Source: Psammoneis japonica
Taxonomy: Eukaryota
NCBI GenBank assembly: GCA_008632985.1
Contig: QPGO01000034.1
Coordinates: 263,311 to 327,310, forward strand
Direction: 5' to 3'
Length of the DNA stretch: 64,000 nt
Shown: positions 9,431-44,190 of the stretch, in pieces
How the letters are laid out: every line of letters starts with the position of its first letter
How positions within the stretch are numbered: the stretch's first letter is position 1
Position numbers and translations under genes: made by a program
The notes under the pieces: model-generated
Seen by the model: the letters and a program-made list of their open reading frames with translations, nothing else
What the model was told of the DNA's origin: nothing
Databases searched by the model: none

Positions 9431-9899
9431 CGATAGAAAACAAAGGGTCTAATCTAATAAATCGATGTTAGTACATTATTACAATGATAGACACACTCAG
9501 CAACCAGTGATACACAACGTTAGGACAGTTCTCTTATCATCTACCATAGAACGATCACACCAGAATTATCAAAAAGGGGAAACCCACGTCTCTTCTTATG
9601 ATATATTCATACACGTATACAAGAATTAAATCGCCATTTTTTGATATAATATTAAAACATTAAATATAGAATTACGTCGCACATTAATTAATTGCGAACC
9701 CATCATTTAAGCGTGCGAATTTTTTAAAAAAATGATTGGTGGCAAGTAAAGATCAAAGCTCTAAAATTTGATGCTCGCGCGCATGGCAATCCAAACCAGC
9801 CCGGGTTCCACACCTCCTCACTTCGTGTCCAGAGTTCCTACCATAAAGGAGGAACCAATTTCCGGTACGGACGAGGGAGACGGACACTAGAATTCAAGA

Positions 9900-11541
9900 A
9901 TGAAGCACCTCCGGAGTAGCGGTAGGACGCAGATCGAATCTGACGTAGACTACAACTTAGAGAGACCGACGAAGAGGGGACGTCTTGACAAAACAGATGA
10001 GACGTTTATCGAAGATGCGTTTCTACAGCATGTTGGTGATGATATATTTCTCCGTATGATGGGTTTCTTCGTTTCAGAATCGGGTGTAGTGGATGGAGAA
10101 TCTCTGAAGAGTATCATGTGCGTATCCAAGGAGTGGTACAGACTTTCTTCTTCTCGAGTACTGTGGTCGACTGCTGCTAGAAGCCATTCTTTATCATGCT
10201 TGATCAAAGAAACTCGACCTTCCCATCACATCTGTGAGTTAGTGTTGCAGCCAACGCGGCCAGTCGAGCGTTCTTCGTCTCCAAGGAGACTGGGCGGCGA
10301 GTCTAAGTCGAGCCTCATTGGATTTGCCAATCTCGGAGTTCTTCGACTAGAAGATGACGGTGTCTTCTTTAAAGCCAAAGAAAGGGCTACTGGTTATCAG
10401 TTTGTGATCCATATTCCAGCTGGGTGTGATCGAGACTCCGCCATGCTTTTTGAGATATTCATGTCACACTTTCTCGGTGAACGCACCTTCCTCAATTGGG
10501 ATAGGAATCGTCGTATTGTACATCCTTCGACTGCAAATAACATACTTCTTGCAGGACTCGATGTAGTACATGGGCGTCTCGTTCGATGGTACGACATCGA
10601 TGACGAGAGCTTTCAGAAGTGGCACCGGAAGTATGAGAGAAATGCAGCAGAGCTTGTTTACTCCGGAGCCATTTGCCAACTTAGACAGCTTGAGAACTAC
10701 TCACACCTTGCAACATCAAATAGGAAACATATACAATTTGGTCATTGGGCAAGTATTGTGGACTGGATCGCTGAGATTATTGAAGTGTTCGACCTCAAGG
10801 TCTGTGTTGGATTTAGAGCCATGGCGTACTTTGACCTCTTCATTTCCTCTTCAAAGGTATGTAACCCGTCAAAGTGTCAAGTGCGAATTTCTGTGTCTTG
10901 ATTTCTAACTGATTCTTCTATTCAACACTCTTTCTAATCAGAAGAAAACAAAACAACAAAGCTATCAGTTGCTTGCAGCTGCCTGTCTTCTTATTGCTTC
11001 GAAGTGCGAAAAGTGTTCGATAAGTGAAGAAGATCTCTCCTTTTGCGCAGATAACACCTTTAGCACACTAGCCGTCTTAGCTGCTGAAGATCGTGTGCTA
11101 CGCAAGATCAATTGGAGGCTTTGTATTCCCGGGATCTTCGATTTCGCCACCGCGTACATTGATGCACTTCGTCTTGATAGTAAAGCGAAAGTCACTTGGA
11201 TGATTCGCTATCTATCTGAACTTGCACTTCAGTGCTCAGTGTATCTACGGTTTCTTCCGTCCTGCATAGCAGCATGCGTTGTTTCACTCGCTTTCCAGTC
11301 TATGCAGATACCGGACGTTTGGCCAGAGGAGGTAGCGGCGACTTCTGGCTATTCTTGGAACGACCTTCAAAAATGTATGCTTGCTTTGTCTGCAGACCTG
11401 GAACACATCAGCGCAACCATGACAAACTTAAACATGATATCACGGAGGTACTCGAGAGGAGATCGAGGACATGTAAGTGGCTTATCCATTCCTCGCGTTA
11501 CTTTGTTTCCATCAACTCCTCGGGCACAATCTCGAACATGA
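9900..11541 (+). CDS. Cyclin with an N-terminal F-box-like segment; intron 10857-10941
   Basis: DDIFLRMMGFF...IMCVSKEWYRL is F-box-like. Cyclin box: IVDWIAEIIEVFDL...AMAYFDLF...QLLAAACLLIASKCE...EDRVLRKINWRL, then YLSELAL...FLPSCIAA. Confidence 0.82.
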
Positions 11542-20454: not shown

Positions 20455-20920
20455 CGCTTCTCGGATTCTCCCAACTGCCTTTGCCCAACCTTACCGTTAT
20501 GAATCTACGACTATGCGTTTGTTGTGGCCGAGAACTGGGTGTTTTGGTTGGGTTCGTTCTCGCCCTAACAGTGTATGGATTAGGTACGGTATGTTTGTTT
20601 GCGGTTTGGGTTCGTTGCTCGTTGCTATCATATTGCTTTGGCGCTGGGGGTGGCTTTGGCGATGAAAACCGGCGAAAAGCGCGCGCGACGAAGGAATTAT
20701 TAAAATACATAATATATTCAAGAATTAATACTTTATATATTGCCAGAGAACTGCCAACCGCAAAGTGACCAGAACCGTCTTCTTCCGTACGGTACAGACC
20801 TCCCAGTTGGGAGTGGACCAGATAGAACGCAAGACAGCGACACAATATTTTATTATTTGTGCGTGAGGAAGAGGATGAAGGTGCAGCACAAGGGTTAATG
20901 GAAAACAAGAAAACCGTACA

Positions 20921-21244
20921 ATGTTGGGAAGAAGCAGAATGTCTGGGTTGCAAAAGGAGGTGTTGGCTTTGTACAGGCAGATTCTCCGAGAGGCAGTAAT
21001 AAAAGATCGCGTAGATGGATCCAACCAACATCGGTCTTTTCTGTCACTGCTTCATGATCGACACAATCCAGCCACCGTTGGAAAACGTTCCACAACCTCT
21101 TACGCCAGTTACGAGTTTCGTCGAGAAGCATCTATGTGTCAGAGAAGTGACTTCAAAACCATTGAATACAAAATAAGAAAGGGACAAAAACAACTGAAAA
21201 TGCTGCGAATGCCGGGAGTCAAGGTTGTTAGTGGCATATCCTAA
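20921..21244 (+). CDS. SDHAF1: LYR-motif protein, succinate dehydrogenase assembly factor 1-like
   Basis: SGLQKEVLALYRQILR...EFRR...DFKTIEYKIRKGQKQLKML. Confidence 0.78.
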   Translation: MLGRSRMSGLQKEVLALYRQILREAVIKDRVDGSNQHRSFLSLLHDRHNPATVGKRSTTSYASYEFRREASMCQRSDFKTIEYKIRKGQKQLKMLRMPGVKVVSGIS

Positions 21245-24200
21245 TGCACGAGGCGTAGCTGGTCGGCCCTGTACCACATTGTTTCGAGACAAAGAAGTTA
21301 CTTTGGAACTCGTGGATTATCATGCAGAAGACGACCTTGAGAGTGAGCGCTGTCCAAGCAACATTCAGATATCGCAATGTCGAGATTCATTGCAAACTCC
21401 ATTATCGTTTTCACAAGTTGTAGACTGCCCTAGACGTTTCGCTCGTTCTCCCCATTGAATAAGTGCGGTAAAAGATGTTGGAAGCTACATGCTATGCATT
21501 CCTGTCAACGAATCGCTTTTTAGACGAAGATTCAACTCCAAAGACTAAAAAAAAATTACATCATGAATCCCATTATAGTATAATCGCTGTACCGTACCCT
21601 TATCCCTTCTCCGCCAGTTCTACCGTACCGGCAGGCATCCAACGAAACTCCTCTCTACTATACTCTAGCTCTCTACTCTAGTAGCTAGCTACTAGTAGAG
21701 AGTAGACGTCTACTCCCAAGAGTAAAACAGACAGTACGGTAAGGTTGCTTTGACGACTGACGAGCGGACGGATGGATGGAATTAATCAGCCAGGAATTTT
21801 GCGCGCAACGCCTCTCCACTGCTAGCTGGTAGCTAGGAGTGCTCTAGCTAGGGCCCCAGGGGAGTAGAGAGCAGCTGCTGCCACTGCCGGCAGCTGGAGA
21901 GTAGAGAGTGGCTACTGCCAAGTAGCAGAGATTCTCTGAGCACCCCAAACACGCGTGAGTGTGCCCAGCCCCAATCTGTCAGGGCTGTCAGACCTCCACA
22001 TGAACTGCCCTTGTCGACCTTCAAATGCCAGTTGTCGGATTTGGCGCGGTTTGACACACCCCTGTTTTTCACCAAAATGGAGCTGCTTGTGGCAGATGAG
22101 CCGCAACTTTCCAGGAAACAAGGGTGACAATTTTTGGCATTTGGCTGGCCACAGACACGTCTGCAGTCACCACGCCACTCGCGCAGAGCCACATCCATTG
22201 TCCATGCATTCTGTGACATCTCATGAGCAGACAAGTTTGACCCATTGCTGAATTTTTTTGCAAACACACTCACACACATTCAGTGTGCAGCATGTGTTGT
22301 CAAGAAGCAGACGAAATTACACACACCACATTTGTGGTCATGCACTGTTGTGTGTGTCAATCACACGACAATCATGGACACATGTGATGGTCAGATTGAC
22401 CACACAAAATGGATCAGATGTCTAAATTGCAAACACAGTTGACAGATGATGTTGACACATGAGATGTCAATGTTGATTGCATTCAGACAATCTGTTGTCA
22501 TGGTCAGATTTTCCGAAAGGCCTTTCTTGCTCTGCAAGAGCAGTGCAGACACTTTGGGCCATTGAGAACTCTTTGAGAGAATCAGGTCATGACAACAGAT
22601 TGTCCAGATGCAATCAACATTGACACCTCACAATGTGTCAACATCATCCATCGATTGCATCTGCAATTTTGGTCATCCGATCAATTCTGTGTGATGATTG
22701 TTGTGCAATTGACGCACACAATGTTGTGCAACCACAAACACGCGCAACTTCATTTGCTTGACAATGCATGCTGCAAGTGCAGTGCATGCCCAGGTTCATT
22801 TTCACAGTGTCACAAGCTCCAACAAAATTGACCACAAACCAAGAACGGTCCATCCTCAGATGGGCTCAGCCCACTGTCCATCTGGCAATGGCTTTTGAGC
22901 CAAAAATGATGGTGCTGCTCAGTTTGTGTGGCCATGTCTGCAGTCTGCAGCTGTGTGCGCTGAAGCTCTTTGTGTTGGCACTTGCAACCAAGTGTGTCTC
23001 TTGCGTGGGCCCACAAAGTCACAAAAGACTCAAAACAGCTGACAGCTGGGGAGGAGGCAGCATTGCCAACAAGTTTTCATCGTTGAACAGAAAATCTCTC
23101 CAGCAAACTTGGCACAAACACCATTGTTTTGCTCTCTCAAGCAAGAGACTCAAAAAAGCTTGTGAAGTGCTTTGCAGGGACAACAGCTGCTCGCAGGGCC
23201 CACCAAAAATTGATCTGTCAAAAAAGCTGCACTGAGAACTCAATTTTCAGAAAATGAGAGTTGACCCACTCAACTCAGCACAAACCTTTGTCCAATGGAA
23301 ATGATCTTGTGGTGTGCAAGCTGCAAAAAAGGTTGGAAGCTGTTGCCCCAAATGGACAGCACAGGTGAGCCAAGCCATGGGTGGGATTGCCAGATCAACT
23401 CCTTCATGATCTGCCAGACACTGTCAGCAGCCCGTCAAGTCAAAAGTCAATTCATTGTCTTCATGGGGCTGATCTGCCATGCTGGATTAGATGATGATCT
23501 TTGGAGCAAAAATGTGTTTGCTTCAAAGACCATCTAATCTGAGAATCTGGGCAATCTTGGAGAACAATTTTGAAATGTTCCCTGGTTGTCATTGTGGCAA
23601 TGGTGGATGTCATGCGATTGTGCTGCAGAGCAGCATGAGAACACTGCCATGTCACATGACCCTGATTTGGGGTGATGTGACAAAACAGCACACAGTGTTT
23701 TGAAGAATGTGACAATGCACCAAAGCCTTCAATTTTGTTCCTGTGATGTTGCAAGCTGTTGCCATTTTGGCTTGCAGAACATTCTTGTTTTGGGAAACTG
23801 ACTTCCACTGTTTGCCCACATTTGACATTTGTGTGCAATGGGTTTTGGGTTTTTTCATTTCAAAAGACAAGACACCAATTGCCACAGAAGCATCTCATTT
23901 TTTACATCACATCTCAACACAACACAGGAACAGGAGGAGAGCTGCCCTTTGCACTTTGCACAATCTGACACTTGACTTCCACTTTGACTGTGCAAACAGG
24001 GTGACCTTGTGTGATGGAATCTTTGCCTGATTGCTCAATTTTTGTTGGCCATGATGTGCAATGCAACCAACATGTGCGTCACCCCTGGTGTGCCAGAAAT
24101 TCATTTTTGTTGCCCTGAAAGTTAACAAAAACACCCACGTTTACTTTTTCAACCAAGCTGGGCTTTTCCCCCTCTTCCATTTCTGACAATGTGTGGCTGT

Positions 24201-25183
24201 CTGTGGCATGGAGTTGCTGCTTGCTTGTCTTGTCATGCCCTTGCAAGGCACATTGAGTGGACTTGTGATGAAGCTTGCCCATGTGTTGTTGACAAAGAAG
24301 GAGGCAATGACACAACTCTTCACAGGACATTGATGGGGCAGATGTCAAGCAGTGACAGTTTTGGTGGGTGGTGGCAGCCATGATGACAATTTAGAAGAAA
24401 TCAGCCATGAAATCAGCTGCCAATGAGCTGGACTCTGCCTGTTCTGATGATACAATGACAAACATTGTGGCAATGAGCAGCTGACTTCTCCTGCACCATC
24501 ATGGTTCAATGGTGCTGTGGTGTCAGAGAATTCTGCAGCAGCTCTTGTCCCTTTTTCATCTTGGGAGGATGAAAGCAACACAGGCATGTCTGACAACACA
24601 GCTTGTGTTGGTCAGCTTTCTGATGCCATGAGCAAACATTCACAATGCATCTCCTCTTTGGACTCAGTGATGACAGCAATTTTGGCTTCCCACCCAATGT
24701 CACCAATGAAGGCAGTGATGCTGCAATGCACCTTCCTGAAGATGGTGATGGTGGTCGTGGCAAAGATGATGAGAAGAGGAGTTGGCACATCATTTGTGGT
24801 TGAGGCATGTCCCTCTTTTTCACACACCAAATTTGTGAATCTCATCTTTTTGCCCCAATGCAGCAACTTTTGCTTGATGCCATGTGCAGCCATTTGTTCT
24901 TCAAGCATGTGCCACATCATGGCTTGTGCTGACCCTCTCATCATGCACATTGAGGTGTGTGTTCACAAGGTTTTGGCTCCATTCCTCCCACCTGTTGAGC
25001 TTTGGTGCTTTTTTGTGTGTGGACAATGAGAGAAAACTTTTTTGGCAATGAGGAGTGTGTTGCCAATGAACTGTGTGGTTCCAAGGTGTGTGGTGAGTTG
25101 AACACAGGCACACCACAGTGGAGGGGGCACAGGCTGCATTGATGACTGTGTGTGGCACATGGTGACATGTCCACACAGGCGAT

Positions 25184-27020
25184 GTGCCAGTTGATTCAAT
25201 GGTTGAGACATTGAAGTGCCCACTGAGCAAGCGAGATGGTGAAGAGGCTTGCCGGCAACCGTCAGGCAGCATGATGGCATCTCATCCATTTGTGGAGCTT
25301 GCACTTTGGGCAGGATGCATGACAACTGTGCACTTTCAACATTTGAGACAACCACAGGTGCACTGCTTTTCTCCAATTTGTGTTTTCATTGATGGGGCGC
25401 ATTGTGGCCACAATGACCAGCTGCAGTCAGAGCCTGTGTTGGCTTCATTTGGAAATTTCTCCACGTTGATTGGGCACAGCCCTGATGGTTTTTGCTTGGC
25501 CTGTTGCCAAATTCCATGCTGACTCCTCAAGAAAGAAAGCATTGCAATTGAGGCTCTAGTCTCATGGTGAGTGCTTGGGCCTGCAGCTGCATGGTGGTGC
25601 ACTTCAGGCAGTGTTTTGAGAGCTGACTCATCTGGAGCAGTGTGGTGAGGAGACCAGCAAGGAACTCCCCTGTAAAGTTCATGAACTTGGAGATGGGCAT
25701 CTTCTTTTTTGAGTTTGCAGTGATCATGTTGCACTTCAGGCAGTGTTTTGAGAACTGACTCATCTGGAGCAGTGTGGTGAGGAGACCTGCAAGGGGGGTT
25801 TCCCCTGCACAGTTCATGAACTTGGAGATGGGGCGGCATCTCCTTTTTTAGTTTGCAGCATGTGCTGGAGATGCAGTTGGTCATGATGCCTTGACTTGGC
25901 ACTGCAAATCTTGTGGCAAACTGACTCATCTGGAGCAGTGTGGTGAGGAGACCAGCAAAGGGGCATTCCCCTGCACAGTTCATGAACTTGGAGATGGGCA
26001 TCTCCTTTTTTTAGTTTGCAGTGTGTACTGGGAATGCAGTTGGTCATGATGCCTTGACTTGAAACTGCAAGTTTTGTGGCAACAAGCTCAGTTGACTGAT
26101 CTGCTCCTGCAACAAGTCTTCTGAAAACCCGCTTGACAACCCTGATGTTGAGGAGTGTGAACTTGTCACTCAAAAGACATTGCACCTTGCAACATCAAAC
26201 TTTGCACTGGCAAGATTCAAAGGTGATGCAAAGTCAGCAAGTGCTGTGAGAAAGCCAAGTCAATCTCACAGCCTTTTTCATCCCTGTCTTTGACAAGATT
26301 TCCTGTGGTGGCTGCCAGTGTAGCATCTTTGGACTGGCACCTTTCTGGCTTCTTTGCGTGCATTTGCTCAGCATGATGAAACATTCCCTCAAAGCTCTTT
26401 TCTCTTTTTGGTCATGGCAAAGATGTGCACAACCATGAACAAAACAAAAAAACAACCAAAAGTCCATTTTCAATGTTGGGAACTCAAGCAAAGGGCTCAC
26501 ATGCTGCCTTGCAGAGCAAACAACAGATTGGCTGTGGCTTTCCACCAGATGTGGTGTCAAGTGCTGGAGTGACAACCTTCATGGGCACACAGGGCAAGGA
26601 GCATTTCTGGTTGAGCCTGCTTTCAACTGCAGCTCTCCCTGGAATGAAGGGAGGCTCCTCATTGGAAAAAAGCTTTGTTTTCCTTCTCTGGCAGGGAGTT
26701 GTTCTGTCACATGCTCCACCACAATCACCACAATGAAGTGCACAAATTGGAGACAAAAAAGGCAAGAACTGGAGGACCGCATTTGTCTGCACCACTCAAA
26801 CAAAGTGGTGGGACCTGTGCACAAAATCAAATCAAAACATCCTCTGCTGTTGGAAACAAGCTCCCACAGTTTTGTGGCATGCTGCACATCCTGAGGCAGA
26901 CTGCACTGTTGGGGTCTTCTCAAAGCCACTGCGGCAACCATCTTGAGGTTTGAAAGCATTTTTCAAGCCCCCCCCCTGCCAGAAGGACTGGCAAAACACA
27001 GCAGCTTCAAGGTGGATCTG
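25184..27020 (+). pseudogene. Decayed Plavaka-like (CACTA/EnSpm-related) transposase
   Basis: PICVFIDGAH...QSEPVLASFGNF (~25373-25460), GDAVGHDAL (25867-25893), SIFGLAP (~26322), KLPQFCGMLHILRQTALLGSSQ...ARRTGKT (~26858-27000) match, by recall, the PIxxFIDxTH...EPVxxTLG, GDxxGHDxLCG and KFHxxxH...FGS...PAxxTQK motifs of this family. Confidence 0.65.
25598..26070 (+). repeat. Three imperfect tandem copies (~130-180 bp) within the transposase remnant
   Basis: Core CTGACTCATCTGGAGCAGTGTGGTGAGGAGACC...GTTCATGAACTTGGAGATGGG starts at ~25624, ~25756 and ~25921. Confidence 0.9.
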
Positions 27021-29345
27021 ACAAACAGATGTGGTTTGAGTGGGAGTGTGCAGACTTGTGTTCATGGAGAGTGAACATTGGCAAGAGAGATGAGCTGATT
27101 GAAAAACAAGTGAGACAAGAATGTGCATGGGTTCTCTTTGCAGACCAAGAAGGAGAAGAGCAGTGTTCTGCCCAGTTGCAGTCCAGCTCTCTTGCAAGAC
27201 AACTTGCCCCAGCAATGTGTTTGTGTTCCTTCACAACAGGCAGCACAAACAAAAAGCAGTGGTGCACACAACATGCCCAGTGTTCTGAGCATGATGTGGC
27301 ACATCTTTTTATCCAACTTCTTCCCAGCTGCATTTTGAGCCTGCTGCTGTCATTTCTCAGGAACCAGTTGAGCAACAATGTGGTGGCAGTTGCGGCAAAC
27401 TGTGAGTTGTGCATGGCATTGAATGCTCCAGTGAGAAAGCATGACACCATTTGACACAGCCCAAAGTGCCAAGAAGGATCTTGGTTTAACTGGGTGATGC
27501 CAGTGCATGCAGAAATTGGCCAAGAAGATGATGGTGAAGACTGCAAGGTCCCTGCTTGTGCTCGCATCTGTGGCTTTCATCCGTTGAGCCACAAACTGGG
27601 AAATGATCCATTTTTGCTCTTGTCCAGCCCACAGTCTCAGCAAAAATGCAGCAACAAAGCATCTGACAACATGAGGTTCTGGAATGTGGGCAGTTTTCTG
27701 CCATGAGGGCAGTGTTGTTTCTTTTGAAAGCTGGTGCTGAGACAGGGGCTTGTGGTGTGTTGCCCACAATTGACTGCTGCCTTTTCCCAAAGGAAACCAC
27801 ATGAAAAACATGATGGTGTCCTGTCAGAGGACAAATCAAGCTGCAAAAATGCTTCCTTGTTGTGCCTCACCTGCAACATGGCACAACAGCAATTGTTGGG
27901 CCAACCACCTGGCTCTGACAGTTTGCCGGCAAAGCTGGAAAAGAATGATGTGGCAAAAACAGCAAAGCTTTGTTGGAGTTCTTGTGAACACCATGCAACA
28001 ACAACAAAAAAATGCAGCAATGCAGAGACAGAGGTCACAGCCACTTTACAAAGCCACTGTGTGCTCGTTGGGCTGTGTGTGCATTTCTCTGATGGACATC
28101 AGTCTTGCACCCTTTGCCGAAAGCTGCCAAGCAACAGGTTTGCTCACAATGTTGAATGAGGCAGCATGAAAGCAGCAAAGCTCAGCTGCACTTGCAAACA
28201 GCATGTGACAATCATGCAGCTGCACATCTGGTGATCACAGTCACTCTGCACAGAGCACCTGTCCACTTGTTGGACTGCGCACATGTCCCCTGCATGGCAA
28301 CCTTGTGCGCTCCATCCAAAACCACAATTTGCTGCACAACATGTCTCCTTGGAAGTGAATGGATCTCCATGGGATGACGCAACCTTTTCATCTTGCAAAG
28401 AGAAGATTGTTGGCTGTTGCCATTGTTGTTGCTCCAAAACTTGTGTGACAGAGCTTTCAAAAGCTGTGCCACCTTGCCTTGTTGTCACACCCAAGGCTGC
28501 CAAGTTGGTGAGATGCACTGTGCTTTTCTGCAGTTTTAGCAAAGTGCTCAAAACCCAAAACCTGGAGCAGTTTCACTCATCACAGCATGTGGGAAAAATC
28601 CCTGGGCTGTCACAACCTTGCCAAGATTTTGGCAATGCTTGAGTTTCCTGAGCATGGACATGGCATTCTCAGCCCTCATTGAAGCAAGGTCAAAAACTGT
28701 GTCAGTCAAGAACAATGATGATCACAACTTGTCCATTGCCTCTTTGTGGTTGCCATGGACTGGGTTTCTGTTGCTGTCTTTTTTGACGCCCACCCAGGTT
28801 GTCACAGGGGGGGTGATTTTGTCTCAGTTTCCGGGGACCACTCAGCTTGCTCTTGGGCCTGAGCACCATGACCACCTTGATGCTCCACAAACCACAAAGA
28901 GACTTCAAGTCTTCCTCATGCAGCAGATGCAGCCAAGTTTGGACAATGTTCCATTCTCTTCATGAGTCAGTTTGTTCCCAGCACTTGACTGTCTGCATGA
29001 TTGCCCCCACGTGTTTGTTCTTGAGAACACCAGGTGCTGACTTTGTCAACAATGTTGCCTCAAACCTCATTCCTCTGCCTCAGTTTTGATTGACTTTGTC
29101 AGCCAGCTTTGCACCAAACAGGTTTGATTGTTCCATGCCAGTTTGGAATGACACTGCTTGTCAAGGAGCCCAAACCTGTCAAGACTGGACATGATGTCTG
29201 TGGCTGCCCTCCCTGTTGCAGACCTCAAACAGCACTGCAGCGGAGCAAGGTTTCATGGATGGAATGGCAAGCATGGATGATGAGTTGTGTTTGAAGCTCT
29301 GGCAGCCCAAGCCCCACACAGCTTGCCACCTTGTTGCCCCTGTCG

Positions 29346-30059
29346 GCATTTGCCCAGAGATGAGTCAACCTTCTCTCCAGCTGTTTCCATGTGTTTGCAA
29401 AGCATCCCATCATTGCAGATGGCAGAGAACTCTTCTCTGTCTCCCTGCCATGTGTGACAAAAGTGGGCAGCAGGTGTGTTGGCAAAACAATTCATTGGAA
29501 AGCAACAGCTGGCTTGCTGGCATGCAAAATGGCAATGCATTGTCCAAACTGGTCCACTGATGATCTCCACAAAACTCTGTGCTGATGTTGTTTTCAAATG
29601 CACTGTGAACACCTTTTTCATTTGCCCCCATCTGCATTTCCCAGGGATGAGTCAACTTTCTCTCCAACTGTTTCCATGTCTTTGCAAAGCATCCCATCAT
29701 TGCAGATGGCAGAGAACTCCTCTCTGTCTCCCTGCCACGAATGACAAAAGTGACCAGGTGTGTTGGCAAAATGATTCATTGGAAAGAAACATCCAACTTG
29801 CTGGCATGCAAAACTGTGATGAGTTGTCCAAGCTGGTCCATTGATGATCCACAAAACTCTGTGCTGACATCATTTTCAAATGCACTGTGAACACTTTGTT
29901 CATTTCCTTTTTGCAAACCTCTTGCAGCACAGATGCATGCTGCACACACAACTCTAAAAATGCAGCTGCATGAAGTTTTTGGATGCTGGACCAGGCATTG
30001 TCACAAAGCAAAAACACAAAACTCCATGCTGACATCATTTTCAAATGCATTGTGAACAC
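29346..30059 (+). repeat. ~290 bp tandem duplication plus a partial third copy
   Basis: GATGAGTCAAC...GCAAAGCATCCCATCATTGCAGATGGCAGAGAACTC...TTTTCAAATGCACTGTGAACAC at ~29346-29612 and ~29634-29894; partial copy ~30015-30059. Confidence 0.9.
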
Positions 30060-30899
30060 ATGCCTTGTTTGCTTCCCTTTTGAAAACCTCTTGCAATGAG
30101 GCATCCTGTGCAACTTGCAGCACAGATGCACAGGCACAACTCTGAACAAAAAAAATTTTTGGAAGGCCAGCCCACCCAGGTGTCATCATGAAGTGGCAAT
30201 TGTCCCTTGACAAAGCTGCCAACCACATTGAAAGTGTCGCCCATTTCCTCACAGATGAGATGTCCATTGCAGTCACCAGCAAGGCTGCCATCCACAAGTG
30301 TGTGCTCTTGTTGTTGGTCCACTTCAGCCAGTTTGATGTTGCCATTGGCATTGCCAGCACCAATGCTGGCATCAGAGAGAGTTGGGTCATGACCCATGGC
30401 CAAATCCTCGACAATCATGGTCATGCTAGAAAGCATCATTGTTGAGGATGCAGTGGATCTGGAGAAGGCACCAATGCTGAGAACAAGAGCAGCCATGGAA
30501 AAGGTGGCAACCAAGGGAGCTAGAAAGGTGCCATGTGCTTGTGGAGCAGGAGACTCATGCGCGCACAAGATGCGTCAAGACAAACTCAAAAACAAGTTTT
30601 TGAGTTGGGATGAAGCTCTTGATGCACCAGTGACAGACAAGAAGCCAAGGAAGAAGAAAACCATCAGTGGCTGCACTGTTGGAAACTGTGAACTGAGCAG
30701 TTGACATCCCTGAAAGTGACGTTGAGGAATTTCAGTTGCTTTGTTGTCTTGTCAGTGTGACAATGTTTGGTGCACAATGGATGTTTGACGAGTGTGCCAA
30801 ATTGGCACAACAAAAACAGCGCGACATTGTGGAGAACTGAAAACAGCGCTGTTTCATTGGGAAAGAATTGTGATGATGGCATTGCACCCCCAAATTGCG

Positions 30900-32731
30900 T
30901 GACACCACAAAATGTTTTTAGCCCCACATGAAATTTTTTCCTTGTCCCAGGTTTTGATTTTGAAGGATCGCTTGCATTTTCACAACACGAGTGATGAGAC
31001 ATTGTGTCAAAACAGAGTTGCAAAATGTGTGTGGGAATGAAACTTCTGTTTAAACCACAGCATTGCAACCAGTGCTCGACTCTGCTTGAAACTCAGATGA
31101 AAAACAGGCCATTTGTGGCATCTGATTTGTGCTCTCTCAGTGCTGTGCCCGGTGCTGTCTGACACACACTGTGATTTTTGCTGCTCTGTTTTGAGATCAA
31201 TGGATCTTTTGTTGAGTTTCCAGCTTCATGGTGTGCCTTGTGAATGGCAGAGAGAGTGTTGCAGCAACTGTCACCCCTCCTTTTTGGCTCGAGGCATGTG
31301 CAGTTGGCACGCCACAGCACAACACACAGAGAGAGAGCCCCAAACACAAACCCACCTCAGGATGACAGGCAGGCCATGTGTCTTGCATTGGCTGGAAAAG
31401 GGATCAAAAGGAAGCAAGAATCTCTTTTCAGCATGGCATTTTTTTTCCTGCTCATTTTCTTTCTCTCATGGCGACCAGCCGAAAAATGCAACATGCCAAC
31501 ATTGAAGATCTTCAACACTCAAACAGACATTCTCAAAATTGCTGTGTTCAGAGTTGAACACATGTTTAAATTTTTCTCCCCTCACACAAGTTGGACACAA
31601 GCAACATCACAAAACATGTGTTTTGACCCACATGAAATTTTTGCGTTGTTGCAGATTTTGATTTGGGAGGTCACTTGCATTTTCACAACAGCCCCACCTC
31701 ACAAAACAACAGTGAACTGGAATTGTGTGGTGTGTGTGGGCATGAAACTTGTGCTCAAGCCGCAGTGTTGTAGCCAGTGCTCAACTCTGCTTCAAACTCA
31801 GATGAAGAGGGGCATGTTTGGCCAGATGAGGCCAGGCAACAAGGCGCGTCATTTGTGTGTCTGATTTTTGCACTCTCTGAATGTGCTGTGGTGTCCAATG
31901 CACACACTGTGATTTTGCACCATTTTTCACTCCTCAGTGAGCTTGAGATCAACAAATCTTTTGTTCAGTGTCCAGCTTCATGGCTCGCCCTGTGAATTGT
32001 GGAGAGAGTGTTGCAACAGCTGCCGCCCCTTTTTTTCTCAAGGTGCATCACACAACACATGCAGAGAGCCCCAAACAAGCCCGTCTGGACAGGGCAGGCC
32101 CCTTGTGGGTTGCATTGGTTGGAAAAGGGATCAGAAAGAAGCAAGAATCTCTTTTCAGCACTGCACTTCAGAGCTTGGCACGGTGCCCACCGACATGGCA
32201 GGATGAACCTGGTGTGGACATTCCTGCTCATTTTTCTCATGGCGACAGGTCGGAAAATGCAACATGTGTCCAATGCACACACTGTGATTTTTGCACCATT
32301 TTTCACTCCTCAGTGAGCTTGAGATCAACAAATCTTTTGTTCAGTGTCCAGCTTCATGGCTCGCCCTGTGAATTGTGGAGAGAGTGTTGCAACAGCTGCC
32401 GCCCCTTTTTTTCTCAAGGTGCATCACACAACACACAGAGAGCCCCAAACAAGCCCGTCTGGACAGGGCAGGCCTTGTGGGTTGCATTGGTTGGAAAAGG
32501 GATCAGAAGGAAGCAAGAATCTCTTTTCAGCGCTGCATTTCAGAGCTTGGCGCGGTGCCGACCGACAGGATGAACCTGGTGTGGCCCGACATTCCTGCTC
32601 ATTTTTCTCATAGCGACAGGTCGGAAAATACAAAATATTCATTAATTAAGATCTTTCATACACAAACGGACATTCTCAAAGTTACAATATTCAGAGTTGT
32701 ATGCGTATTTAAATTTTTCTCCCCTCACACA
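30900..32731 (+). repeat. Nested duplications: a ~700 bp unit repeated (30900-31590 and 31605-32731), the second containing a near-identical ~375 bp tandem pair (31891-32265 and 32266-32635)
   Basis: Shared CCCACATGAAATTTTT...CTTGCATTTTCACAACA, GGAAAAGGGATCA...GCAAGAATCTCTTTTCAGC and TTTAAATTTTTCTCCCCTCACACAAG strings. Confidence 0.9.
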
Positions 32732-32904
32732 AGACACAAGCGATCGCAAGAATGCCTCGCTAAAAGCACTACCATACTGTAGGGCCTATACTCAAATAGT
32801 AGGTCTTATGTAGTGCTCTCGACAGATGAATGTCGGTTGTAGCTTGGAGAGAAGGTAGCCTTAGCAAAAAGTAGGCTGGCGAGGTCATAAAACCAGAAAG
32901 AGGC

Positions 32905-33930
32905 ATGGCGGCAGCCGGTAACGAGGGAACGAGCCATTCCCCTGCGGCGGAAAGTCATCGAAGTAGCTCGAGCGAGGACGAGAAATTGTCGCCGTCTTTA
33001 TCGTCTGCTGCTGACAAGAAGCCAAAGAAGGAGGTTCGACGAAAGAGGAGAGCTCCGTTAGTTCCGTACAAAAAACCTAAGGGATTTCCCAAACGGCCTT
33101 TATCAGCATACAATTTGTTCTTTCAGTGCGAAAGGGAGCGAATTCTCAATGCCAGCCGTCCTGCCTCCGATTCTCCAGCAAAAAGCAGCGACACCGCAAG
33201 AAAAGACGTAGCAGACGCCTCGAAAGTCAGAACAATGATTTCGATTGAACCCAGCTTCGAGAATCAAAAAGGTAATAGTTCTGACAGTTCAATTGACGAT
33301 GACAAACGCAAGAAACGTCGACATTTGAAGACCTCAGGAATAGGATTTGCCAACCTGACGAAAACGATCGCTGCAAAGTGGAAGGTCCTTGATCCTGAGA
33401 CCCGCTCGAGATTCGAGGTGCAAGCGGCAAAAGAAAAAGAGAGCTACAAGAAAGCAGTTCAAGCATGGCGCAACAAGAAGCAGGAATCGTCAGAAGACCA
33501 GGAAGACTCGGCAAAAGAAGAAGCGATCAAAGAAATAGAGTCCGTTCCACAGCAGCCAGAGCCAGCTAATATCCAACCAGACAACAATGAAAGACAAACT
33601 AGCTCTAAACCAGAACCAAATCGCTCGGAGCTTGCTGAAACTCCTCCCGCGACCATAAGTATGAGTGTGGAACAAGACTTTCATGAACGTACCATTCGTA
33701 TGGAAGACGACTTCGCAATGTCAACGAGCGGTTTGGACGGACGAAACCTCGAAAGTGCATTAGCCTTGGAAGATGTTAGCCCAGTAGAGATCATGGCTGC
33801 GGAGCACCAAAACAGCTCGAGCAAAACCGACAACGCGGAGAATTCAATTGTGCAGTCTTCTTTGGCGGTTCTTGGTTCACACCTCGACGACGAGACAGCC
33901 GACTTTCTGACAAATCTAAAGTACGACTAA
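32905..33930 (+). CDS. HMG-box protein with a split box, single exon
   Basis: KPKGFPKRPLSAYNLFFQCERERIL...GIGFANLTKTIAAKWKVLD...AAKEKESYK; 341 aa open frame. Confidence 0.88.
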   Translation: MAAAGNEGTSHSPAAESHRSSSSEDEKLSPSLSSAADKKPKKEVRRKRRAPLVPYKKPKGFPKRPLSAYNLFFQCERERILNASRPASDSPAKSSDTARKDVADASKVRTMISIEPSFENQKGNSSDSSIDDDKRKKRRHLKTSGIGFANLTKTIAAKWKVLDPETRSRFEVQAAKEKESYKKAVQAWRNKKQESSEDQEDSAKEEAIKEIESVPQQPEPANIQPDNNERQTSSKPEPNRSELAETPPATISMSVEQDFHERTIRMEDDFAMSTSGLDGRNLESALALEDVSPVEIMAAEHQNSSSKTDNAENSIVQSSLAVLGSHLDDETADFLTNLKYD

Positions 33931-37333: not shown

Positions 37334-38991
37334 TACATCCAAAAAAATCTACCCTCAGTTCTACCCTGTAGAGAGTAGTACTCATCCTACGGGGAAGAAG
37401 ACCAACCCGTAGCCATCAGTAGAGAAGCTACGTGCTAGTAATCAACCTACGCAAACCCCACGCGAGGAGTTGAACCCGAAAAAAAACTTCAAGACGAAGC
37501 GAGCGACGCTCAAAAAACACCGCGCCGTCACCTTGACCATGGCCTTTGAACGCCCGTAGTTCTACTCGGTACCCATTACAGCAAAGGTATGAATGCCAAC
37601 ATTGACTAATGAGACTATGAAAAAAATGATGCTTGCTTTGGATTTTTTGCTCACCCTTGCCTTTTGGGTGTTTGATGACTTTTGCTGCAAGAGAGGAAAC
37701 ACGCGGCGCCACCGCGTCGGTAAAAGTAGCGTTGATATTTCTACTCGGTGATTTGAGGACAAAGGTGAGAATGCCAATGCTTGCTAAACTTAGCTTTAAA
37801 AATCGTATGGTTGTGTTTGCACTCATTACAAAGCCCGTCTTTTGGGCGTTTGATGCTTTTTTCTGAGGCACAGCTTTTCTCTCACTTTTTCTATTGTTTT
37901 GTGGTCGCTCATAGGTCTACCCGGCACCCATTGCAGCGACGGCATGAACACCGCTACGGATTAATATGACTATGGAAAAAAATGATGCTTGCAGTGGATT
38001 TGTTGCTGCTCCTCACCTCTTGGGTGTTTCGCGACTTTTGCTCCCAGAGAGGACACTGACAGGACTGCCGCGTCTGACACAGTAGCATTCATAATCAAGC
38101 TCGGCTTCGGACTGCAAAGGTAAGAACAACAAAATTTGCTAATAATAATGTCGAATATGTGATGGAAATGTTTGTTTGTTGTACACATCTCATGTTTTGT
38201 GCGTTTGATGATTGTCAAGTGTGGCGCAGTTTTTTCCTCACAGTTTCTCCTGTCTCGCCGTCGCTGACAGGCCCACTCGGCACCCATTGCAGCATAGGTG
38301 CCAAGGTGAATACGGACCAAATAGTTATAAAAAATGTATCTCAAGCCAAGGATGCGGAACAATCTATTTAAAGATCAACGGCAGCAACCCTTGGTCGTGC
38401 CTTCCGCGCTAGGGAGCAGCTTGTTTTCTTCTCAAGCTGGTGGAAGTGCAATGAGGTGCTGATTGTTCCTTAGGCTAATGCAATTGTTTAGTAATATTTA
38501 AATATAAAATTCACAACAGTAATCTCAAATAGGTGCTTTAGAGCTTGTCAAAGTTGAAAGTAGTGCAAGTCGTTCGTCTGCTTTCCCACAGGGAGTGTGA
38601 AGGTTTCTACTGCACTCAGGACGCCTGTGAGTGCTGCTTGCCATGCCACCATAGATGCAGTTGGCATTGGTGCAGTTGCCGGGGTTGCATACGGCAACGC
38701 TCATGGTTGAGATGCCGCATTGAGACGAGTAGAACTTTCGAGTATTTTTTTTGTTCCTCCCGTCGCACTCGACATCACGCACCAAGGACAGACTGTTTAG
38801 ATCGCGCGAAAGGGGCGCGCAGGGTAGAATTTTTGGCTCCGAAAATTCTACTGTGCCTTCTACCTGAGTGGAATAAACAGTGGATGTACGGTAGATCTTT
38901 TTAGAAGATACCAACACCGTATTGACATTTTTACATACGAGAATTCCACTTTCCAGTAGAAAAATACTACTTGGGTAGAATTTTGGGTGTA
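37334..38991. mobile_element. Possible non-autonomous DNA transposon with imperfect ~20 bp terminal inverted repeats and internal ~357 bp degenerate tandem repeats
   Basis: TACATCCAAAAAAATCTACCC (37334-37354) versus GGGTAGAATTTTGGGTGTA (38973-38991); internal units anchored by ACCCATT(A/G)CAGC at ~37570, ~37926 and ~38282; no coding domain recognised. Confidence 0.35.
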
Positions 38992-39685
38992 ACGGTACTG
39001 TACGGTAGTGGCCCTATCGGAGACAGTCGCTCGCGCTGCCTCGTCTTCTTTCAGCATTTTTATTTGATTGATGGTTGTCAATTGATTGCGAATGGCACCA
39101 TCAGTCAGGTGAGTTGAAAATGTGTGTTTCAGTCGTACAGTTGCTGCAAGATCAAACAATGATGAGATTGTGATGCACTTACGAGTGTGGTTGACATTTG
39201 CACAAAACTCTTGATTGCTGCTCACAACATGAGATGATGCATCTCATTTTTCTTTGGATTTTTCAAAAGAAAATGCTGGCAACACAAGCNNNNNNNNNNN
39301 NNNNNNNNNNNNNNNNNNNNNNNNNNNNNNNNNNNNNNNNNNNNNNNNNNNNNNNNNNNNNNNNNNNNNNNNNNNNNNNNNNNNNNNNNNNNNNNNNNNN
39401 NNNNNNNNNNNNNNNNNNNNNNNNNNNNNNNNNNNNNNNNNNNNNNNNNNNNNNNNNNNNNNNNNNNNNNNNNNNNNNNNNNNNNNNNNNNNNNNNNNNN
39501 NNNNNNNNNNNNNNNNNNNNNNNNNNNNNNNNNNNNNNNNNNNNNNNNNNNNNNNNNNNNNNNNNNNNNNNNNNNNNNNNNNNNNNNNNNNNNNNNNNNN
39601 NNNNNNNNNNNNNNNNNNNNNNNNNNNNNNNNNNNNNNNNNNNNNNNNNNNNNNNNNNNNNNNNNNNNNNNNNNNNNNNNNNNNN

Positions 39686-39948
39686 TGGACCAATGGCCGC
39701 TGTCAATTGATCCAATCAACTGCAACTCAAGTGGAGTGCAAAACAATGTTCAAAATCCCTCCATTGAGCATTGAGAGTGATCCATTCAATCAACACTCTG
39801 CACACAAATGGAGAGTTGCTCTGCCGCATGCTTGCAATTTATGAATTTGCTTCACTGCGACAACCAAACTCTTCGTCAGTCCAAATGCTTGCACTCTGGT
39901 CACCATCATCAACCAGCTCTGATGGTCAGCAGTTGGGCATTTCAAACA
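39686..39948 (+). repeat. 5' LTR (partial)
   Basis: Aligns with 43935-44190 (ATTGATCCAAT...GTGGAGTGCAAAA...ATCCCTCCATTGAG...CTGATGGTCAGCAGT...AAACA). Confidence 0.85.
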
Positions 39949-42900
39949 GACTTCCTTTGTGCTGAGTGAGACAAAAGAGGCAACCAATCATCATTGTGTT
40001 TTCTCTGAGACACCTCCTGCTGAGGCCATCACAGGCATTCTTGACTTTGCAGAGATGAAGGCTCACAGTGCAACAAGGTGGTCAAAGAAGCTTGTGGAAA
40101 ATGGCTTTGTCTGCATGCAGGAGAAACTTTTCCAGCTCCTCAAGATTCTCAAAGATGGAGCTGCTGAGAATGGTTGGAATGAAGATGATGACAATCTGGT
40201 GAACACAATCATGTCTGACACCACCAATTTGTTGACACACCGTGGTCAAATCAAAATGGACCTCACCTGTTGACACAAGTGCGTGTGCATCAATCAACTG
40301 ATGAGGCCAGCACAAGATGCAAGGATGCCACACCACCTTGTTGTGAGTGCACTTTCTGAAGAAGGAAAGACCAGAGTTTTGGTCTGGGAAAAGCATCACA
40401 AAATTCTCAAGAATGACAAGACATGTTTGTTGGGAAACCTTCTGTTGAAGGCAACAATCCAAGAAAGTCACCTTGACACCAATGCAACTGCAACAAGCAT
40501 CAGGGTAAAACTTGGCAGCAATCTTGACAAGTGCATTGGCAATGCATTGAGCAACGTCATTGACAAATTCAATTGATGCCACTCCTGAATCAAGCCCTCA
40601 GGTCTCATGGTGAGACAACTGGGGATCTCCAGTTGAGCATGTTCAAGTGACACCTTGCAGCACCCAACAAGACATTTGTCAACTGCATCTGTCACAAACA
40701 CGACAAGCACAATGAAGGAAATGACATGGACCCCAATGAACTCATGAGCCTTGTGGCAAAAAAGCACAAGAAGATGGACCTGGTCAAGATGGAGGAATGG
40801 AGCACACCATCATCCCTTGAAAAGGAAAAGATTTTAGCTCCAGAAGCAAGCTCATTCCAAGCAGGCAAGCTGTGAAAGGATTTGGAGGGTCAAAAACAAT
40901 GGGGTTGTGATGGGCATGTTGATCTGGCAATGGCACAATGATGACAGGATTGCTCACTTGTTCAAGGCCAGCCCAAGATCCCAAACTTGCACTGCGCACA
41001 CCTGACGAGGATGGCAAGGTCCATCTGCCCAGTCCCTGACACTGGGCAAAGACACAAAAGGACTGCAAGCCAGTTGAGGTTGCAGGGGAAAACACAGATT
41101 CCAAGCTGTGCAGCACTCTGTGCTGCTGGAGCCAAAAGCAAACTAAATTTGCACCTCCCCTGAGTCCAGAAACCAACATCGCAATGTTTGATCTTGCTTG
41201 TGGTTGCCAAAAATTCAAGGCCTTCTGTGCCAAATGTGGGGTCAATGACACCACTGAAGATGATGATCCTGTTGCAGTGAACGAGGCAAAAATTGTGAGC
41301 AATGAAGAGGAAGACAATGAGGAAGAAGAGTGTGATGTTTCAGGGTCAGTAAAACACACCTGGGCCTTGAATCCAACCATGCCTCAGGGTCGGATGAGAA
41401 CACTCCAACCACCACTCCATTGAATCTGGGTGGGCCACCTGAGGGCACAAGCAATGATGCTGGTCTGCCCACCCAACTCACAACAGAAAAGGAAGATTGG
41501 CAGAGAGAAGGTGCATCAGCCAACTCATTGAGACACCATGAAAAATGTGGGCACATCTCATTCCGGAAACTGCAAGCAATGGCAGAGGCAGAGCAGGGGG
41601 GTGTCCCAAAGCATTTGGCAAAATGCAATGCACCTGCATGCTTGGTCATGAAAGCAGGTGATGTGATTGCAACAAGAAGGTGCACAATCTACAGAAGCCA
41701 GCTCAATCAGGCCAAGTGGCTGGTGTCAGCAGATCAAATGGCATCATCAACCCTGGGGCTGATTGTGCAGATGGCAAGGTTTCTGACAACCCCAAGCTGA
41801 AATGCAAGTGCACAACAGTGTGTGTCAACCAATGCCCCCACTTCAGCCATGCACATTTGTTGCAAAAGATGGCAAGCATGGAGGAGGAGATGCCAGAAGG
41901 AAAGAAAGCTTTCAAGCTGATGGCAAGAAATTGTGGAGTCAAAGAGCCAACTTGCCATGTGGACAATGGGATGTGTTCAAGGTGAAGCAACAGGTGCAAG
42001 CACATCATGACCAAGGGCAAGGCCTTGCATTTGCAGGCATCAACACACAACACATGAACAGCATCACCAAGCACCACATCCACAAGCTGCAGGAACACTC
42101 CTGCAGCATGCTCATGCATGCCAACAAATGATGGCCTTCAAGCATCACCACCAACTTGTGGCCATGCACTGTCTGAATGGCAAACAATGCAGCCAATGAA
42201 ACACAAAGCTTTGGCAGACGTGGACACCCCATGTGCACACCAAGCAATCAAACAACAAGATTGCAAGGAATTTGTCAAGGCAATGTGCAAAGAGGTTGAG
42301 GCACAAATGAAGAATGGAGACTTTTGCCACAGTTCCAAGATCAATGGCAACTGACAAAAGGAAGTCACTTCCATCTGTGTGGCAGATGAAATGAAAGAGG
42401 TGCATCATGGCCTGCACTGTCAAGAAATGGACAGCAAGATTGAACATGAACAGATCAAGAATGAGAGAAGAGGTTGATTGCAGCCAAAGGTGTGCCCCAG
42501 AAAACTTGATGCATGTGCACCTTCCATGAGTGCATGATTGGTGCACCAAGCAACTGGGCCATGTGTTGGCTTTCCCACAGGCTCCAGCAGAGCATGAGAT
42601 TTGTGCACAGATTCCAAAGGCATTTGAAGTTGATGAAGGAGATTCAAAGGACTTCATGCCACACTTGAGTCAGAATTTGCGCAGACAGAAACAAGCCGGG
42701 TGGGTGTGGAACAAAGAACACCTGGTCAATGAGTTGACAAAAGAGCTGGGCTTTGCACAGCCCCAGGTTGATGAGTGCACACTCCACCAAGGCAAGATGA
42801 TGCACTTGCTGTGTGTTGATGACAGCTTGTCAGCATGACCCGATGAGGAAGAAATTGATCAAATCCTGAGGATTGTCCAAAGGCTGCCAAGCTGGGCATG

Positions 42901-43885: not shown

Positions 43886-44190
43886 TGTAAAAAAATGACC
43901 TCACACTCAAGTTTACAGAGTTGCAGATGTTGGGCCAACAGCAGCCCCTGTTGATTGATCCAATTGACTGCAATTTGAGTGGAGTGCAAAATTTTCAGCA
44001 TTCAGCATCCAGCATCCCTCCATTGAGTGTTGAGAGTGATCCTTTTAATGCTCTGTGCAAATGGAGAATTGCTCCACTGCATGCTCACAACTTGCGAATT
44101 CACCATGACAATTGAACTCTTTGTGAGCCCAAATGCCCTGGTGAACATCATCAGCCAGTTCTGATGGTCAGCAGTCAGGTGTTCTAAACA
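43886..44190 (+). repeat. 3' LTR, ~305 bp, TG...CA
   Basis: Starts TGT immediately after the polypurine tract and ends AAACA where similarity to the 5' LTR stops. Confidence 0.85.

Follow-up and report, generated by a model that had tools for sequence, protein, structure and literature searches.

TpA and CpG loss in transposon and repeat DNA of a 64-kb Psammoneis japonica window, a probable case of targeted hypermutation

We describe three domains in a 64,000-nt stretch of contig QPGO01000034.1 (assembly GCA_008632985.1, Psammoneis japonica; positions 263,311 to 327,310 of the forward strand), hereafter the window and numbered from its first letter, that are depleted of the dinucleotides TpA and CpG: a Helitron remnant, a Copia element and a 10.7-kb repeat tract. 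The depletion is limited to these domains and the neighbouring DNA is normal. The loss of both dinucleotides is derived, arose after insertion and took place at the level of DNA. It most probably reflects targeted hypermutation of mobile or foreign DNA in place, in a diatom, by which TpA was converted to TpG or CpA to near saturation, together with a slower and probably methylation-driven decay of CpG. An earlier annotation made from the letters of the window alone (the sequence-only reading) had proposed that a second process, besides CpG decay, turns TpA into TpG or CpA in silenced mobile DNA. This proposal is supported by intact homologues, by long terminal repeat (LTR) and tandem copies within the window, by the Helitron and by an independently assembled public sequencing run. 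Its title, which named TpA only, was right about the TpA loss and understated that of CpG, which in the domain cores is depleted as strongly as TpA.

Loss of TpA and CpG in three domains

Depletion was scored as observed/expected (o/e) ratios of dinucleotides and as counts against the expectation from the flanks (binomial test). A per-kb table of the whole window showed two domains nearly devoid of TA and CG, at 22001–32000 (1–4 TA per kb, o/e 0.01–0.06; 3–19 CG, 107–139 TG and 99–137 CA per kb) and at 40001–44000 (0–4 TA and 1–5 CG per kb), and a third at 6001–8000 that is depleted in part (TA o/e 0.13–0.21, CG o/e 0.60–0.69). Across 83 overlapping 1-kb windows of the flanks TA has a median of 39 and never falls below 24, in line with the remark that flanking genes and spacers have TA on nearly every line, and an exact recount of 22021–22980 returned 2 TA, 18 CG, 115 TG and 135 CA where 2 TA and about 18 CG had been counted by hand. 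In 14 kb of mutated DNA taken together, o/e ratios are 0.04 for TA, 0.12 for CG, 1.93 for TG and 1.85 for CA, against 0.59, 1.00, 1.12 and 1.09 in 37.8 kb of flanks; TG and CA, claimed to be strongly enriched, are thus about doubled. No base frequency of the mutated DNA departs from that of the flanks by as much as 0.01 (A.274 and.269, C.231 and.238, G.241 and.238, T.253 and.255), GC content is 0.45–0.50 inside and 0.41–0.51 outside the depleted domains, and the sum of the four pyrimidine-purine (YpR) dinucleotides is kept (24.5% in mutated DNA, 23.5% in flanks). A conserved YpR total with unchanged base composition is what transitions from CG and from TA to TG or CA predict, and the claim that the process leaves GC content unchanged agrees with these figures.

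Domain edges are sharp (5785 and 9347, 21924 and 32610, and about 44184). The main tract at 21924–32610 (10,687 nt, with 1283 TG and 1218 CA) holds 26 TA where 434.6 are expected from the flanks (p 6e-151) and 94 CG where 604.9 are expected (p 2e-153). The Copia remnant at 39686–44184 (4,499 nt, forward strand) holds 11 TA against 182.9 and 21 CG against 254.7 expected, and the Helitron remnant at 5785–9347 (forward strand), counted without its assembly gap, 45 TA against 125.7 (p 3e-17) and 109 CG against 174.9 (p 3e-8). Because TA is gone, TGA dominates among stop codons and Tyr codons are nearly absent: the six frames of the main tract contain 566 TGA, 23 TAA and 17 TAG stops and 12 Tyr codons, and those of a 12.6-kb flank 449, 245, 237 and 638, respectively, as the sequence-only reading had noticed for the repeat DNA.

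The Helitron remnant was identified by its Pfam matches (Helitron_like_N, E 4.6e-8; DUF6570) and by 25 homologues of 36–52% identity that carry PF14214, the full-length ones of about 1850–1990 aa also with helicase domains (PF05970, PIF1-type helicase). Pieces found by tblastn lie at 6306–8047, 8534–8917 and 8907–9347, with an assembly gap of 474 N (8055–8528) between them and most of the helicase deleted. TA o/e rises along the element from 0.03 (5785–6300) over 0.16–0.23 (6301–8054) to 0.33–0.35 (8529–9347), CG o/e is only 0.52–0.78, and normal DNA with a TA o/e of 0.86 begins at 9348. The Helitron is an intermediate stage of depletion.

The Copia/Ty1-type LTR retrotransposon remnant is decayed by frameshifts, in-frame TGA stops and an internal deletion, and its 5' end enters an assembly gap of 396 N (39290–39685). 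A read-through query retrieved 33 homologous polyproteins of 1257–1546 aa, 25 with PF13976 and PF07727 and the other eight with PF07727 only. These gag-pre-integrase and RVT_2 polyprotein homologues, the tblastn pieces at 40791–43720, which follow polyprotein order with frameshifts and a deletion, and the flanking LTR pair establish the Copia/Ty1 identity; a Pfam search of the mutated Copia DNA gave no match. The partial 5' LTR (39696–39933, forward strand) pairs with the 3' LTR (43944–44175, forward strand) at 71% identity. When eight Helitron and Copia homologues were searched against the whole window with tblastn, matches were confined to 6306–9347 and 40791–43720. Both assembly gaps of the window sit at or in these two hypermutated transposons.

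The main tract is bounded by the last TA before it, at 21923, and by the resumption of TA at 32611. Pfam searches of its six frames found no family at E ≤ 0.01, and among its 37 open reading frames (ORFs; E ≤ 0.1) the best match was PepSY_TM with an E of 0.0042, far below the family cut-off; ORF lengths are estimated to be close to chance expectation under TGA-only stops. Self-comparison showed tandem arrays at 25595–26082 (unit about 132–166 nt, wholly TA-free), 29334–30095 (unit about 284–288 nt, TA-free) and 30902–32741 (units about 700 and 376 nt, spanning the right edge of the tract), and a palindromic high-copy element resembling a miniature inverted-repeat transposable element at 22401–22693 (inverted self match of 73% over 302 nt, arms 22460–22519 and 22571–22630). 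In a public run (coded X1) that holds 90% of the sampled words of 20500–30400 and whose contigs were assembled independently, word depth is 1115 in the bin 22236–22669 of the palindromic element versus about 66 elsewhere, and most of the tract is single-copy by 31-mer depth. Of 141 X1 contigs over 20500–33500, 103 are only 90–99% alike, so that diverged relatives of the tract exist elsewhere. The label 'repeat-restricted' fits only in part, given the mostly single-copy depth of the tract and a right edge that falls inside a repeat unit. Likewise, two of three supposedly unrelated transposon classes were verified, no class being assignable to the 10.7-kb tract, and the depletion said to recur in both other elements is as strong in the Copia element but partial in the Helitron.

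Derived origin and reality of the loss

Window codons were aligned to conserved columns, defined by at least 60% agreement among at least five intact homologues. None of the 29 Tyr columns of the Copia element is kept (12 Cys as TGY, 12 His as CAY, five other). Of its 32 Arg columns 12 are kept, every one as AGR, and 17 have become His, Gln, TGA, Cys or Trp, the products expected of changes from CGN to CAN or TGN; the control residues Trp (11/13), His (20/22) and Phe (18/22) are largely kept. The Helitron has likewise lost all ten Tyr columns (seven Cys, two His, one Phe) and keeps 12 of 14 Arg columns, four CGN codons among them. The Tyr content of 58 homologues is 1.0–4.2%, with 56 at 2.4% or more. 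Intact relatives are thus not TA-poor, which bears on a doubt raised in the sequence-only reading.

Comparisons within the window agree with a derived state. The LTRs of one element are identical at insertion. The Copia pair now differs by 55 substitutions, 49 transitions and six transversions, including 13 adjacent CA/TG doublets, the expected trace of an ancestral TA or CG that was hit on one strand in one LTR and, independently, on the other strand in its partner. At the right edge of the main tract, a mutated tandem copy (31163–31602) can be read against its unmutated homologue (32276–32741), which has 9–11 TA and 13 CG. Ten aligned TA of the unmutated copy correspond to five TG, two CA, one TA and two other dinucleotides in the mutated one, and eight aligned CG to four CA, one TG, two CG and one CC; TG and CA are mostly retained (19/24 and 36/44 positions, respectively). 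A comparison of YpR-preserving with other substitution classes was uninformative, and a control duplication in normal DNA behaves alike.

The X1 contigs cover 20500–33500 at a word depth of about 54–88 in most bins of the tract versus 58–72 in flank bins, and they show the same TA-free sequence (platform unrecorded). The sequence-only reading had pointed to raw reads from another platform as a possible source of TA at these sites; the X1 contigs, although perhaps from the assembly's own sample, agree with the window, and the TA-free state is therefore not a product of this assembly alone. The longest pieces listed are more than 99% alike, for example 2811 nt with eight differences and 2720 nt with four. 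Over 20500–33500, X1 and the window differ by at least 35 bases and at least 12 insertions or deletions, with four more beyond those listed. Among the base differences listed, 32 of 35 lie in the tract (29 transitions, three transversions), and 24 of the 29 transitions swap CG or TA with TG or CA (19 CG-type, five TA-type), where the chance share, estimated from the tract positions in TG or CA, is about 47%. At two places in the tract X1 holds two variants at about half depth each, namely 26648–26704 (32.4 and 31.6 of depth 64) and 30807–30848 (47.1 and 47.5 of depth 94.6), which suggests two haplotypes or a mixed culture.

Targeting, mechanism and rival explanations

The share of dinucleotides left, relative to flank expectation, is 36% for TA and 62% for CG in the Helitron, 6% and 16% in the main tract, and 6% and 8% in the Copia element, and a Helitron on a metagenome contig (L014) has o/e ratios of 0.03 for TA and 0.30 for CG; TA loss equals or exceeds CG loss in all four cases. 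CG persists at the ends of the main tract where TA is gone (11 CG in 21952–22182, 16 in 32024–32622) and falls to 3–7 per kb in the core, and the TA-free zone reaches 250–600 nt past the CpG-poor core at both edges. These TA edges stop short of neighbouring ORFs, such as the HMG-box ORF from 32875. At 32610 the right edge falls within a repeat unit: the TA of the 32276–32741 copy are all at or after 32611, and the segment 32611–32741 keeps its TA, its homologue at about 31480–31602 being mutated. A diverged tandem duplication at 37551–38293 (unit about 356 nt, 69% identity), which overlaps ORFs without Pfam matches, has normal TA and CG, and duplication alone therefore does not cause depletion. 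Taken together, the edges and the untouched duplication argue for positional targeting of a chromatin-like domain and not for pure homology sensing.

The 82 TA that survive in the three domains are skewed in their context, with seven RTAY, 37 mixed and 38 YTAR where the flanks predict 24.2, 42.1 and 15.7 (R, purine; Y, pyrimidine; chi-square p 2e-10), and this skew suggests that, on either strand, A is hit preferentially when a pyrimidine comes after it. Among 90 former Tyr codons (TAY) pooled from the Helitron, the Copia element and L014, 49 are TGY and 23 CAY. No strand-coordinated editing was seen in runs tests on Cys/His order (p 0.42–0.91). Along the Copia element, former Tyr codons are TGY in nine of 11 cases in the first half and CAY in ten of 13 in the second; this post hoc split, for which the runs test is non-significant, might point to a change of preferred strand within the element.

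We propose that TpA turns into TpG or CpA through replacement of its A:T pair by G:C on one strand or the other, and that this goes on until some 95% of TpA has been lost and with it Tyr codons and TAA and TAG stops. CpG in the same domains is converted to TpG or CpA more slowly or later, most strongly in the cores, so that CGN Arg codons end as Cys, Trp, His, Gln or TGA. Both conversions are observed in the window and may or may not be linked. Targeting would follow the position or chromatin domain of silenced insertions and not sequence homology alone, given edges that are sharp, leave neighbouring genes outside and in one case cut through a repeat unit. The natural tRNA substrate of ADAT enzymes is U33-A34. 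The TadA-family enzymes ADAT2/ADAT3 would offer, as a lead, a matching chemistry of adenine to inosine, read as G, next to a 5' T or U, and a TadA/ADAT2-like deaminase acting on DNA with an apparent 5'-T-A-pyrimidine preference is the most likely candidate enzyme, as defence is the candidate role. A preprint (bioRxiv 10.64898/2026.01.13.699255) summarises reports that ADAT2/ADAT3 deaminases of amphioxus and trypanosomes edit DNA and that their ADAT2 acts on A as well as on C. The CpG loss is most likely due to deamination of 5-methylcytosine, because diatom transposons are methylated through DNMT5; Phaeodactylum deprived of DNMT5a loses DNA methylation, and its young transposons become de-repressed (PMC9998398). 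Such decay of methylated transposons accounts for the CG half of the pattern, including the change of CGN Arg codons to TGN or CAN, but cannot remove TpA, which is here the faster and more complete loss.

A process of this kind has already been described, of which the sequence-only reading was not aware. Hypermutation of TpA only has been published for integrated viral DNA of Bigelowiella natans (Mettrop et al., bioRxiv 10.64898/2026.01.13.699255). According to the main text of that preprint, 231 of 302 nuclear single-nucleotide mutations in 15 mutation-accumulation lines fell in integrated giant-virus and virophage regions; 230 of these 231 were A>G or T>C, all 230 on TpA, at a rate of about 6e-7 per site per generation (1e-7 to 1e-6) and in some lines only. 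The preprint further reports 124 genomic clusters of 1-kb windows depleted of TpA and enriched in CpA and TpG, and an enrichment of reverse-transcriptase and DDE domains in TpA-poor coding sequences; it proposes an ADAT2 homologue as candidate enzyme, and its main text is silent on CpG. Shared with the window are the change of TpA to TpG or CpA on either strand, the restriction to foreign or mobile DNA with normal neighbours, the kilobase-sized clusters and the enrichment of CpA and TpG. The window differs in its host, which groups with diatoms and not with Rhizaria, in its targets (Helitron, Copia and unclassified repeats), in its saturation (TA o/e 0.03–0.06 versus 0.45 in the Bigelowiella giant-virus insert) and in the co-depletion of CpG in the Copia element and the main tract (o/e 0.05–0.12), the Helitron and L014 being nearly TpA-only. 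De novo events were seen in the Bigelowiella lines, whereas the evidence in the window is a footprint in assembled sequence. Judged by the preprint's main text, the host lineage, the saturation in transposons and the co-erasure of CpG lagging behind TpA loss go beyond it. In a literature search in which subscription journals were poorly covered, we found no TpA-depleting hypermutation beyond this preprint and none in diatoms, and nothing usable on cytosine methylation in Bigelowiella.

Several observations speak against targeted TpA hypermutation with methylation-driven CpG decay, or against parts of it. The largest tract has no identifiable transposon protein. The 3'-pyrimidine preference is drawn from surviving TA, some of which may be newly created, and a codon test on the preceding base gave an odds ratio of 2.5 in the predicted direction with p 0.13. 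As TpA is self-complementary, A>G cannot be told from T>C. Thirteen transitions in the LTR pair lie outside YpR contexts, and other processes thus contributed. The differences between X1 and the window run both ways (CG is in the window in nine cases and in X1 in ten, TA in two and three), which marks them as haplotypes or strains without an arrow of time and does not show present-day activity; X1 may moreover be the assembly's own sample, its platform is unrecorded and its contigs drop rare variants. Going by the preprint, the Bigelowiella lines lack a CpG component, and the CpG step may therefore be unrelated. The host, finally, is placed with diatoms by a single gene.

Three rival explanations deny hypermutation of DNA in place, and each has next to no probability. 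If the elements had arrived poor in TA and CG, or if selection on RNA had removed UpA and CpG, no hypermutation would be needed; UpA and CpG are indeed under-represented in many viruses and expressed RNAs, as far as the literature consulted goes, and normal window DNA already has a TA o/e of 0.59. Against this, the homologues have normal Tyr, the window copies carry Cys or His in place of Tyr and the products of CGN>TGN/CAN, stops included, in place of Arg, the elements are broken by frameshifts and deletions, once-identical LTRs differ by CA/TG doublets, and an unmutated paralogue lies in the window. Modified bases can cause systematic miscalls on some sequencing platforms, and with the platforms of both the assembly and X1 unrecorded, the pattern might be ascribed to base calling or polishing of modified DNA. 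Such an artefact is hardly compatible with X1 contigs of the same TA-free sequence at flank-like depth, with the protein-level pattern, stops and frameshifts of really decayed elements, or with the recurrence of the signature in an unrelated metagenome contig and in proteins of other assemblies. ADAR-like A-to-I editing of transposon RNA, fixed by reverse transcription, would suit the 5' U preference that is typical of RNA adenosine deaminases (bioRxiv 10.64898/2026.01.13.699255) and an element that, like Copia, replicates through RNA. It does not explain the data, because the Helitrons of the window and of L014 are DNA transposons, and the two LTRs diverged after integration, both Copia strands are about equally hit (12 TGY, 12 CAY) and non-coding tandem arrays are affected. 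Restriction by ADAR and APOBEC shares with the window the deamination of invading nucleic acids, but ADAR has RNA as its substrate and APOBEC targets C in TC or CC, and neither accounts for loss of TpA on both strands of a DNA transposon or for the LTR divergence.

The remaining rivals accept hypermutation and differ in its chemistry or trigger. It is distinctly unlikely that a single deaminase with dual A and C activity made both changes, which would need no DNA methylation. The two depletions share three domains, the differences between the window and X1 are alike per remaining site (19 per 94 CG, five per 26 TA), and the dual-activity ADAT2 is a precedent (bioRxiv 10.64898/2026.01.13.699255); the footprints nevertheless differ, CG being left where TA has already gone, namely at the edges of the tract and in the Helitron, CpG-specific C>T is the classical outcome of 5-methylcytosine deamination, diatom transposons are methylated (PMC9998398), and the preprint's account of the Bigelowiella hypermutable regions gives no C>T excess. 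An oxidative pyrimidine chemistry is also conceivable. 5-Formyluracil pairs wrongly with G, and in some protists 5-hydroxymethyluracil takes the place of T, with a preference for TpA. A TET/JBP-type dioxygenase could oxidise T in TpA and 5-methylcytosine in CpG to 5-formyl products that mispair (5-formyluracil with G, 5-formylcytosine with A); both dinucleotides would become TG or CA within shared domains and leave the YpR total as it was, and, TpA being palindromic, T>C at its first base fits the tandem, LTR and codon data equally well. We hold this to be quite improbable, given that the two losses do not go together in the Helitron and L014, where Arg CGN codons are largely kept and Tyr is gone, and that Bigelowiella, on the preprint's evidence, mutates TpA with no change of CpG. 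Repeat-induced point mutation (RIP) of fungi resembles the window in that the host introduces transitions at particular sequence contexts into mobile DNA in situ, the relics of which keep a skewed dinucleotide content, and a RIP-like trigger could detect duplicates by pairing, for instance before meiosis, and mutate all copies at another target dinucleotide. Each of the three tracts consists of or includes repeats (Helitron, Copia, tandem arrays, high-copy palindrome), and the 103 of 141 X1 contigs that are 90–99% alike speak for diverged copies elsewhere. The requirement of RIP for duplicated sequence is, in contrast, at odds with a tract mostly at single-copy word depth, a right edge at which homologous DNA on two sides fared differently and the untouched duplication at 37551–38293; the hypermutable giant-virus insert of Bigelowiella is described as single-copy, and the direction is opposite, since RIP acts mainly on CpA, where C:G is replaced by T:A, so that TpA arises and GC falls (PMC2621366), whereas here TpA is destroyed and GC stays the same. 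A homology trigger of this kind is therefore very improbable. Extending the favoured reading, one might imagine a chromatin-targeted base-editing defence of diatoms and probably of other protists of the supergroup SAR (Stramenopiles, Alveolata and Rhizaria), in which one enzyme system, a dual A/C deaminase or a 5-methylpyrimidine oxidase, erases TpA and then CpG from all silenced viral inserts and transposons with a 5'-T-A-pyrimidine preference, and which is so widespread in nature that Tyr-free relics could serve as its marker in metagenomes; we regard this as tentative and, on balance, unlikely.

Occurrence elsewhere, host lineage and neighbouring genes

Among 80 Helitron loci of metagenome collections the median TA o/e is 0.59. 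L014, a 7,761-nt contig that is a full-length Helitron relative, has 13 TA and a TG/CA o/e of 1.7; two of its 41 Tyr columns are kept (24 Cys, seven His, seven Phe), as are 53 of 62 Arg columns. It carries the signature of the window in an unrelated Helitron lineage, and control loci keep their Tyr (L009 35/40, L013 34/41). A weaker case is L058, a 4,289-nt metagenome contig with a Helitron relative (TA o/e 0.18, CG o/e 0.06, seven of 24 Tyr kept), in whose host the order of TA and CG loss may differ. The protein survey covered the best 150 representatives of a library-wide HMMER search with an intact Helitron protein, of which 138 were evaluable, and seven of these had at most 1.0% Tyr. Six of the seven, from public assemblies, combine few Tyr residues (P0184 0/866, P0195 0/1355, P0315 2/946, P0306 9/1570, P0294 3/425, P0014 10/966) with raised Cys and His; they are 26–53% identical among themselves and to the window copy, so that several independent lineages are involved. 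Long Tyr-free ORFs may be a marker of TpA erasure.

Context-specific hypermutation as a defence has so far been represented by fungal RIP, animal APOBEC and ADAR and one 2026 preprint on a chlorarachniophyte. The window suggests the same signature in diatoms, saturated on ordinary transposons. Diatoms are dominant marine primary producers on a different supergroup branch, and some species are genetically tractable. If this is true, editing of DNA adenine (or thymine) would be a widespread eukaryotic defence that GC-based and RIP-index scans would have missed, as had been foreseen from the sequence, and public assemblies could be surveyed by TpA o/e, Tyr-free ORFs and TGA as the only stop. For annotation, such tracts yield long spurious ORFs and mask transposons from profile searches, as the blank Pfam result on Copia DNA illustrates. 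The enzyme itself would be attractive as a naturally occurring editor of adenine in DNA.

Host assignment draws on a condensin-2 D3-like ORF (47502–52325, 1608 aa), whose best matches have 56% identity. Of 20 homologues with organism names, 19 are from diatoms (Nitzschia, Cylindrotheca, Pseudo-nitzschia, Fistulifera, Amphora, Thalassiosira, Cyclotella, Cyclostephanos and metagenome-assembled genomes of Bacillariaceae) and one is from the bolidophyte Triparma. In a maximum-likelihood tree of 23 rows (quick search, with support from the Shimodaira–Hasegawa-like approximate likelihood ratio test, SH-aLRT, only), the window sequence falls among diatoms, outside the Thalassiosirales-plus-Triparma group and outside the raphid-pennate set. 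The host thus most likely groups with diatoms, which agrees with the long, intron-poor ORFs of the window. The TA (0.0407) and TG+CA (0.138) frequencies of the flanks match the published coding-sequence means of Bigelowiella natans (0.041 and 0.137), but this candidate source is rejected on the strength of the condensin homologues, the tree and the long, intron-poor ORFs.

No deaminase gene was found in the 64-kb window. An Aminotran_5 ORF (57869–59158, forward strand) and a PP-loop ATP_bind_3 ORF (59159–61279, forward strand) stand in the same frame with one stop codon between them; they may belong to a single gene, with a short intron or translated by read-through, or to two genes that abut. 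A cyclin gene (9891–11541, forward strand) is broken within the Cyclin_N domain into two ORFs only about 8 nt apart, which implies a very short intron or a frameshift.

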